A stretch of 64,000 bases of DNA from a virus (taxonomy: Duplodnaviria; Heunggongvirae; Uroviricota; Caudoviricetes): the IMG/VR virus record IMGVR_UViG_2721755646_000011; one strand, written 5' to 3'. The stretch's first letter is position 1. Every line of letters starts with the position of its first letter. Under the pieces are notes generated by a model. It worked only from the letters and a program-made list of their open reading frames with translations. It did no database searches and was not told where the DNA came from. Made by a program: the position numbers and the translations under genes. This document shows, in pieces, positions 59,310 through 59,609 of this stretch.

Positions 59310-59609
59310 ATGGCGCTTTATATTGATATCAGCGCCATTGCCGGACAGGTAAGAGTTATCAGAGCGGTAACTAAGCGGTATGCGCCTTTACTTCAGAAAG
59401 TCTCTGGTGAGTGCACCGAAGATATTGTCAACGATTTCGTCATCGAACTGCGAGGACTCATCTTCAGTTACAAGGTGACCACAATTTTTGCAGATGGCTC
59501 CCGCGAAACTGTCAGAGCCCTGCGGCTTAAAGGATGTGTCAAAGACTTAGCCACCACATTCTGGGCAAGAAAACTTGATTGTATTCATAACCAATTTCCT
59601 CTCGAGTAA
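59310..59609 (+). CDS. hypothetical protein occupying the ydfA/ydfB slot of the second operon
   Basis: 99-aa ORF with no similarity to the ydfA/ydfB readings at 260-545. Confidence 0.4.
   Translation: MALYIDISAIAGQVRVIRAVTKRYAPLLQKVSGECTEDIVNDFVIELRGLIFSYKVTTIFADGSRETVRALRLKGCVKDLATTFWARKLDCIHNQFPLE

Follow-up and report, generated by a model that had tools for sequence, protein, structure and literature searches.

The locus examined here raises the question of what occupies the position directly behind the leader of a lambdoid early-left operon, and on which strand its gene is to be read. The DNA is a stretch of 64,000 nt from a virus of the class Caudoviricetes (IMG/VR record IMGVR_UViG_2721755646_000011; hereafter the window), in which two early-left operons of the dicBF type, each belonging to a lambdoid prophage, are found. 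In prophage 1 the leader is followed by ydfA, ydfB and ydfC; in prophage 2, ydfA and ydfB are absent and an open reading frame (ORF) of 99 aa lies in their place. The explanation that appears probable is that this slot holds a decayed cassette of the lambdoid mosaic in which two ORFs overlap fully, codon against codon, on opposite strands. Of these, the minus-strand ORF, which belongs to the ECs_2282 zinc-ribbon family, is the frame under purifying selection, and the plus-strand ORF (the sense ORF below) is probably also a gene. The coordinates of all features are collected in Table 1.

Replacement of ydfA and ydfB in prophage 2

Pairwise blastn comparison of the two operons gave three collinear blocks: 177-248 with 59168-59238 (95.8 % identity), 575-826 with 59682-59933, containing ydfC (94.0 % over 252 nt), and 814-1463 with 60555-61204 (91.9 %). 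Within the first of these, 59 nt of leader (190-248 and 59180-59238, an offset of 58990 between the prophage copies) are 100 % identical, with 0 matches expected by chance, and the identity starts at the predicted transcription start. The original prediction, which had been made from the sequence alone, placed the second leader at 59190-59245, about 10 nt from its true position, and described promoter and leader alike as shared. This is correct for the leader. Promoter-like hexamers are also common to both copies, but the spacer and the upstream operator-like repeats differ, as expected for different immunities.

No similarity was observed between the insert of copy 1 (249-574), in which ydfA matches Pfam DUF1391 (E value 8.8e-28), and positions 59239-59681; the best blastn E value was 0.19, and tblastx gave no match. 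The segment 59240-59680 is 100 % identical to many Escherichia coli O157:H7 chromosomes. The 99-aa ORF might in principle be a diverged fusion of ydfA and ydfB, with which it has its position and a similar total length in common, and nothing else. Its product gave a BLASTP E value of 10 against the ydfA and ydfB proteins, however, and hhalign comparison using a 50-sequence profile returned probabilities of 0.1 % for ydfA and 0.2 % for ydfB. Moreover, some operons contain both ydfA and a relative of the cassette. On the basis of this sensitive profile alignment and the absence of any tblastx match, a fusion is ruled out for all practical purposes, and the predicted exchange of ydfA and ydfB for unrelated sequence, between a near-identical leader and ydfC, was borne out by blastn, tblastx, BLASTP and hhalign.

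The slot behind the leader is, as predicted, a variable one, representing a mosaic position in many prophages. Strict allelic replacement, on the other hand, does not describe it, because relatives of the cassette precede ydfA in some operons and occur in rightward early operons as well. Since they can stand in front of ydfA, the cassette is an insertable module, inserted as well as substituted, and not strictly an allele of ydfA/ydfB.

The minus strand carries an ECs_2282-family zinc-ribbon ORF

The slot had been described as holding one unrelated ORF of 99 aa. That ORF is indeed unrelated to ydfA and ydfB, but it is not the sole occupant, since a zinc-ribbon ORF on the minus strand had been overlooked, and the 99-aa form is itself a frameshifted allele. 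The minus-strand ORF came to light in a nucleotide search with the cassette of Rac-type prophages, in which the Prokaryotic Genome Annotation Pipeline (PGAP) labels the opposite strand 'ECs_2282 family putative zinc-binding protein'. In the window, tblastn gave a match to the zinc-ribbon protein at 59588-59391 (97 %), and a Shine-Dalgarno (SD) sequence, GAGAGGAAA, is situated 8 nt upstream of the start codon.

The NCBIfam model NF047912.1 is named after ECs2282 of E. coli O157:H7 Sakai and has a curated cut-off of 37 bits. With its internal stop codon read as Glu, the window ORF scored 57.3 bits against this model (E value 1e-15), covering positions 1-56 of 60. The E. coli form (57.2 bits), the Klebsiella form (50.5 bits) and the Rac-type form (81.6 bits) all exceed the cut-off, and the relative from cassettes with a 92-aa sense ORF (92-type) falls below it, at 31.4 bits. 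Both zinc knuckles, SCPECGG and ICKNCGH, are present in the window ORF, providing the CPxC and CxxC motifs. Across the families the pattern is K(F/V)xCPxCxx...(17-21)...CxxC(G/F), with a charged helix behind it. None of the four Cys varies among six sequences drawn from five deeply diverged families, between which the sense proteins are only 17-21 % identical.

Unlike the family model, the window copy is cut by a TAA codon after Gly13, so that it represents a pseudogene member of the family. The TAA lies opposite the TTA of sense Leu80; intact alleles have TTC at this position, which is Glu in the zinc-ribbon frame. Among 79 related IMG/VR loci, both frames are intact in 61, eight carry the nonsense mutation only, nine combine it with a frameshift in the sense ORF (the window type), and one has another stop. 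These allele counts indicate that the nonsense mutation preceded the frameshift. In RefSeq, the minus-strand ORF is named and the sense ORF is left unannotated in most genomes with an intact copy; for the O157-type alleles the reverse is true.

Searches of the PDB with the zinc-ribbon protein returned generic zinc ribbons only (TFIIE-alpha and small CPxCG proteins), and the protein matches the N-terminal part of phrog_4852. A relationship to the Lar/RalR restriction alleviation proteins was considered and rejected: scores were 19.6 bits against a threshold of 28.6 for PF14354 and 16.8 against 39.6 for TIGR03655, and the hhalign probability was 36 %, confined to the zinc knuckles. A wider homologue search with the zinc-ribbon query added only Yersinia and two marginal matches, and a literature search for WP_001240336 (the 99-aa protein) and ECs2282 found nothing.

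Two further observations concern the zinc-ribbon gene. An ACCACC..GGTGGT-type hairpin is situated at approximately 59624-59645, between the cassette and ydfC, where it follows the stop codon of the sense ORF and, on the other strand, stands just ahead of the zinc-ribbon start codon. It has different but complementary stems in distant cassette lineages (loci L262, L214, L225 and L274) and no classical U-tract on either strand. In addition, one natural IMG/VR variant (L259) has the fourth ligand Cys, at zinc-ribbon codon 39, changed to Ser with the opposite-strand protein unchanged. This may be either a ready-made single-frame mutant or a sequencing error.

The plus strand carries a truncated form of a 118-codon ORF

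Most database relatives of the 99-aa ORF are 118 aa in length and start MGEVKHQNGR..., and the window ORF corresponds to Met20 onwards. The difference derives from a 1-nt deletion: one A is missing after 59261, converting GCGAAGTC to GCGAGTC, and the GTG at 59254 is thereby thrown out of frame. The 32-aa out-of-frame ORF that now begins there overlaps the ATG at 59310. Because that ATG is preceded by only a weak SD sequence, translation of the 99-aa remnant in the window is doubtful. The 118-codon frame is kept in 70 of the 79 IMG/VR loci, and the other nine all carry the exact core sequence of the window. The exact 5' region of the window, including the deletion, was found in 290 of the 809 complete E. 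coli genomes that carry this region, and strain CB9615 of serotype O55:H7 has the 118-aa form intact with an identical core.

The sense protein gave a full-length hidden Markov model match to phrog_21318 (E value 4.6e-67, positions 1-99 of 99). It had no match in Pfam, NCBIfam or PADLOC, PHROGs providing only this family of no assigned function, and a profile search of PDB sequences gave chance matches only. The family is small, with 24 clusters at 90 % identity and 10 representatives among 1.84 billion proteins, and none was found in species-representative genomes. It is linked to a family of 110-116 aa (hhalign probability 89 %, E value 2e-6, 95 columns) and, also by profile comparison, to a 92-aa family; phrog_29546 independently bridges it to the 110-116-aa relatives. 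A later profile search yielded 68 proteins, all unnamed, and the organisms named as their sources are Enterobacterales.

The AlphaFold2 model of the sense protein has the order beta-alpha-alpha-beta-beta-alpha, with a mean predicted local distance difference test (pLDDT) score of 85.6, or 68.1 with a shallow alignment. The most confident block of 10 residues is residues 11-20, which lie in the N-terminus that does not overlap the zinc-ribbon ORF. No fold match was found for this model. A match to histone H2B (E value 7.5e-4) was rejected as an artefact, being the sum of two sub-threshold domains in a tandem H2B construct.

Selection on the two overlapping frames

For comparison of the two frames, cassettes were retrieved through the zinc-ribbon frame, which avoids a bias towards loci with a called sense ORF. 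Within the overlap, differences in the 116-type family fall on the first, second and third sense codon positions in the numbers 805, 180 and 323 (pairwise) or 64, 17 and 34 (parsimony minimum), and in the window's own family in the numbers 20, 3 and 8. Variation is evidently greatest where the zinc-ribbon frame has its third codon position. In the overlap, the ratio of nonsynonymous to synonymous polymorphism (pN/pS) reaches 1.04 in the sense frame, against 0.21 in the zinc-ribbon frame; within E. coli the sense-frame value is 0.88, because the window's family shows the same pattern. By our reading, the sense residues opposite the Cys alternate between Ala (GCA) and Thr (ACA), no other codons being compatible with Cys on the opposite strand. 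Taken together, the substitution pattern and the invariant Cys indicate that the zinc-ribbon gene is real and that its frame is the one preserved by purifying selection.

These data bear directly on the function first proposed for the slot, in which the 99-aa ORF would be an accessory or superinfection-exclusion gene behind a repressor-controlled promoter, with no part played by the minus-strand ORF. PGAP does call the ORF in O157 genomes, as a hypothetical protein, and its match to phrog_21318, its operon orientation, its start after the leader and its confident AlphaFold2 model are all in keeping with that proposal. Selection, however, is placed on the other strand, whose ORF belongs to NF047912, and the canonical start of the sense ORF is frameshifted. 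As noted above, PADLOC, Pfam and NCBIfam gave no match for the sense protein, and the zinc-ribbon protein gave only a weak partial match to the defence candidate PDC-M14A (positions 18-89 of 152; the E value was 1e-6 with the Rac type and 0.0019 with the window type). Furthermore, a gene read from a repressor-controlled promoter of a lambdoid phage is silent in the lysogen, which is where exclusion must act; any expression from this cassette in the lysogen would therefore be that of the opposite-strand gene. A superinfection-exclusion or accessory role for the 99-aa ORF is accordingly very improbable.

A more serious alternative is that the zinc-ribbon gene alone is real. The 99- or 118-codon ORF would then be a shadow ORF, held open by chance and codon bias, and PGAP would call it in O157 genomes only because the true gene is broken there. 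A sense-frame pN/pS close to 1, and polymorphisms that fall mainly on sense codon position 1, are what this alternative leads one to expect. It also agrees with the naming of only the zinc-ribbon gene by RefSeq in most genomes with an intact copy. What it accounts for less well is the persistence of the sense frame. None of the 51 unique segments obtained by way of the zinc-ribbon frame interrupts it, and its start is the same in each. With the window excepted, in which both are mutated, the two frames are also open in the Klebsiella, Citrobacter, 92-type and Yersinia relatives, and in every lineage the sense frame continues for at least 28 codons past the zinc-ribbon stop. With random synonymous codons, the chance of an open sense frame is 0.16-0.5 per lineage, or approximately 1e-5 jointly over nine lineage groups, and that of an open 28-codon flank is 0.1-0.37 each, or approximately 6e-8 jointly; the joint values are our own products, which assume independence although the lineages are not fully independent.

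The flank is, in addition, conserved specifically in the sense frame. Twenty codons outside the zinc-ribbon ORF align without gaps between both deep families, as hxhDA(S/T)xhxxQ, in a register fixed by the fourth Cys only. The BLOSUM62 score per residue is +1.03 in the sense frame, compared with +0.19 for the mirror frame and values between -0.7 and -1.3 for four others, and the sense-frame similarity was reached by 0 of 2000 shuffles. In the overlap itself, the sense-frame similarity between the deep families is 0.45, compared with 0.15 +/- 0.09 when synonymous codons are redrawn (z 3.6) and 0.28 +/- 0.08 when they are redrawn with the family's own codon usage (z 2.2). Synonymous sites of the zinc-ribbon gene are thus held towards the sense frame. 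A conserved SD sequence and GTG directly follow the leader, and the Cys-to-Ser variant described above is synonymous in the sense frame.

Several points weigh against a second gene. The non-independence of the lineages, already mentioned, is one of these, and no sense-specific purifying signal was detected in the overlap, as the pN/pS values given above show. The three-base periodicity of the flank is weak by parsimony (26, 23 and 38 differences by codon position; p approximately 0.1) and absent from the comparison of E. coli with Klebsiella (12, 6 and 12). The codon-aligned antisense register is the classic, and commonest, one for long open shadow frames. AlphaFold2 confidence is a weak discriminator here, since an antisense translation mirrors the hydropathy periodicity of the gene opposite. 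The constraint on synonymous sites could, alternatively, derive from RNA structure or antisense regulation. On balance, the comparative data make it fairly probable that the sense ORF is a real gene, and the case for a conserved antiparallel pair of overlapping genes is slightly favourable; a shadow ORF is the less likely explanation, though one that retains a substantial share of the probability.

Distribution and genomic context of the cassette

The cassette was found at a coverage of at least 80 % in 936 of 5426 complete E. coli genomes, and ydfA/ydfB, by the same threshold, in 3224 of them. In strain TR01, whose locus is identical, PGAP annotates a YdaT-family gene, a Cro-like gene, a helix-turn-helix (DicA-like) repressor, the hypothetical protein WP_001240336.1 and ydfC, followed by two hypothetical genes, dicB, a DUF1482 gene, an exonuclease, an excisionase and an integrase. 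Isolated phages, Evi among them, also carry this cassette, as do records under the name PPompW, which denotes prophages at ompW. IMG/VR prophage contigs with the same leader vary in what comes next: ydfA-ydfB-ydfC, ydfA with variable 'MEFKDLP' proteins, or the 118-codon cassette and then ydfC. A few loci have other small ORFs, including the 110-aa and 92-aa relatives, ahead of ydfA. A further occupant ahead of ydfA (locus L016), an ORF of 44 aa, shows a UBA-like signature (Pfam UBA_4, E value 3.9e-4, just below threshold; phrog_14709).

In Rac-like prophages no ORF precedes the 116-aa relatives downstream of racR or of a gene for a CI-like repressor; kilR-ydaE-recE-recT-lar come after them, and they follow the same 27-nt piece of leader as the window ORF. 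The closest relatives outside E. coli, in Klebsiella and Citrobacter (58-63 % identity), lie in a rightward operon between cro and the replication genes. E. coli O157:H7 retains an intact paralogous cassette: strain EDL933 has a second copy in another prophage (chromosome 2341142-2347498, locus L278), with both frames open, behind a relB/relE pair and not directly behind the repressor gene. In leftward and rightward operons alike, the orientation of the zinc-ribbon gene is constant, i.e. against the surrounding early operon.

These positions, always beside the immunity region but on either side of it, would be explained if the plus-strand protein were an early regulator of the lysis-lysogeny decision resembling cII, cIII or N. 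In left operons of the dicBF and Rac types its ORF is the first to follow the repressor gene, and in the Klebsiella and Citrobacter prophages it occupies the position of cII in lambda. The protein, however, has neither a helix-turn-helix nor an arginine-rich motif, and its model is a folded alpha/beta domain, not a disordered N-like one. Its pI varies from 5.4 to 9.7 among relatives, it accompanies at least four unrelated repressor types and lies behind relBE in EDL933, and the frame under selection is the opposite one. A regulator of this kind is thus highly unlikely. Specific candidates were rejected on similar grounds. A lambda N-type antiterminator is contradicted by an N-terminus, MGEVKHQNGRRPG, with only two Arg, and by the predicted folded domain with its pLDDT of 85.6. 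A cII-like regulator or an antirepressor, considered because of the position, is contradicted by the absence of motifs and by the co-occurrence with many repressor types.

The leader is of interest in its own right. The 27 nt at its 3' end, GTTCCGCYACCC(C)GGCGTTAAGGGGAA, follow the leader hairpin and stand ahead of whichever ORF comes first in Qin-type and Rac-type operons, i.e. ydfA, the 118-codon ORF or the Rac-type 116-aa ORF in other prophages. The hairpin, at approximately +6, differs in its stem by leader type yet is kept (ACACCG/CGGTGT, CAACGA/TCGTTG or GCAC/GTGC; loci L178, L182, L199 and L126). The leader matched no Rfam family. Hairpin and 27-nt block may represent an RNA element, or no more than a junction left by recombination.

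A proposed role for the cassette

The preferred explanation returns to the antiparallel pair. The slot behind the leader of prophage 2, an ompW-type prophage of E. coli O157:H7, holds a small mobile cassette of the lambdoid mosaic. The ECs_2282-family zinc-ribbon gene, for a protein of 66 aa, lies on its minus strand and is read against the early-left operon; the plus strand has the 118-codon ORF, probably a gene too, in operon orientation, with its own SD sequence and a start right after the leader. The constant orientation of the zinc-ribbon gene against a repressed operon, taken with established lambdoid biology, suggests that this gene may be expressed in the manner of a moron, using signals of its own, at times when the early promoter is held closed by the DicA-type repressor. 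The encoded protein might use the zinc ribbon, together with the charged C-terminal helix, to bind a partner, either protein or nucleic acid. Upon derepression, transcription from the early promoter would run head-on through the zinc-ribbon gene and silence it, and the plus-strand protein would be translated.

This two-state module is put forward tentatively, as a possibility somewhat short of an even chance. Moron-like timing is inferred from orientation only, and a consensus scan for a promoter of the minus-strand gene found nothing suitable; the best candidate, by our reading, has 8 of 12 matches and an extended -10 element and is unconvincing. Both points weigh against the module as drawn. 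In the window the cassette is most likely inert, because the zinc-ribbon gene carries a nonsense codon and the SD-linked start of the plus-strand ORF has been lost through the 1-nt deletion.

Feature coordinates and neighbouring sequences

Table 1. Features of the prophage 2 cassette and of its counterpart in prophage 1 (window coordinates)
Feature	Coordinates	Strand	Basis
Replacement cassette, 443 bp, in place of ydfA/ydfB (249-574)	59239-59681	no strand	
Minus-strand CPxC...CxxC zinc-ribbon ORF of the ECs_2282 family, 66 codons, codon-aligned antisense to the 99-aa ORF; pseudogene	59588-59388	-	
Premature TAA in the zinc-ribbon ORF, replacing the codon after Gly13 (14th from ATG 59588)	59549-59547	-	
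99-aa ORF, Met20 to end of the 118-codon ORF; WP_001240336.1, 'hypothetical protein'; phrog_21318	59310-59609	+	PGAP
Ancestral GTG start, SD GAGGA at 59242-59246 (7-nt spacing); here a 32-aa out-of-frame ORF	59254-59352	+	
Promoter-like site of the prophage 2 early-left (dicBF-type) operon, TTGACC-18 nt-TAAATT	59145-59174	+	Consensus scan
Conserved leader, 5' hairpin ACACCG..CGGTGT, then GTTCCGCTACCCGGCGTTAAGGGGAA; left junction of the replacement	59180-59238	+	Identity to 190-248
ydfC of prophage 2 ('protein YdfC'), right junction; copy 1 counterpart 575-793	59682-59900	+	PGAP
ydfA (260-415) and ydfB (417-545) of prophage 1, alternative occupants of the slot	260-545	+	PGAP names

Further downstream, a second insertion or deletion relative to copy 1, at 59923-60541, separates the two operons. 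It contains an ORF of 135 aa in which the N-terminus, MEFKDLP, is conserved and the C-terminus varies (phrog_1363 and related PHROGs), as well as a 77-aa minus-strand ORF (phrog_10348). Different C-terminal variants of the MEFKDLP ORF directly follow ydfA in many other prophages. The DicF sequence of prophage 2 (60876-60925) scored 43.5 bits, below the Rfam gathering score of 48, and its 3' half differs from that of copy 1. A similar low-scoring variant is present in Rac-like loci, and the target specificity of the prophage 2 DicF may differ from that of copy 1.

Comparison with strain TR01 over 54240-64000, and especially over 61569-64000, gave 99.74 % identity with 13 gap openings. The exonuclease ORF ends at 63197 in the window and is an intact gene of 823 codons in TR01. 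These differences reflect either decay of the prophage or indel errors in the assembly; the cassette region is identical between the two.

Comparison with known systems and implications

The organization of prophage 2 closely resembles that of the ydfA-ydfB-ydfC-dicF-dicB operon of the cryptic prophage Qin in E. coli K-12, with which it has in common a DicA-like repressor, a divergent DicC-like gene, a repressed promoter, the leader, ydfC, a putative DicF, dicB, the DUF1482 gene, the exonuclease, xis and int. It differs in the two-strand cassette in place of ydfA/ydfB, the additional 135-aa/77-aa insertion after ydfC, and the DicF variant (43.5 as against 48 bits). Multiple and partly different dicBF copies in O157:H7 prophages have been reported previously (PMC5069750). 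The replacement itself is ordinary lambdoid mosaicism, the ECs_2282 family is already catalogued, and the window copy is decayed. It is the possible conserved antisense gene pair, and only this, that is of real interest.

Morons and mosaic accessory slots are an established concept for lambdoid phages. The cassette resembles them in its small size, in its conserved flanking junctions, in being present, absent or exchanged between collinear prophages, and in placing a conserved gene against a repressed operon. It differs in that no promoter or terminator of its own has been demonstrated and in that a co-directional ORF is carried as well.

Published antisense overlapping genes are mostly young and taxonomically narrow. 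Such genes have been described from E. coli O157:H7, the organism to which this cassette is assigned, namely laoB (PMC5810103), asa (PMC6294744), ano (PMC5960689), pop (PMC7103648) and three more (PMC9927249); for these the evidence consists of RNA-seq and Ribo-seq. In those accounts, as here, a second ORF is embedded antisense in an annotated gene and is excluded by annotation pipelines. The cassette differs in that its evidence is comparative only and that it sits in mobile phage DNA. It differs further in that the pair is kept in all deeply diverged relatives, in Escherichia, Klebsiella, Citrobacter and Yersinia and in IMG/VR prophage contigs.

A lesson for annotation may also be drawn. RefSeq labels now one strand of the cassette and now the other, according to whether a given genome has one particular nonsense mutation, so that a pangenome pipeline, or a reader, would count two unrelated 'genes' for one module. 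Dual coding is easy to test, since natural knock-outs of single frames exist, in the O157 alleles and in the Cys-to-Ser variant that is silent in the other frame.

Should the plus-strand ORF be real, the pair would be an unusually old and well-conserved case of antisense overlap. That a zinc-ribbon protein of 66-76 aa, encoded codon for codon and in full within the gene of an alpha/beta protein of 92-125 aa, has been maintained as a genuine antiparallel pair through the deep divergence of lambdoid prophages in the Enterobacterales, in a head-on position where early operons begin and with the lysogenic and lytic states each using one strand, is judged an evenly balanced proposition. If true, it would give these prophages a built-in regulatory logic, with transcription converging at the start of an operon that is both repressed and toxic (dicF/dicB or kilR).

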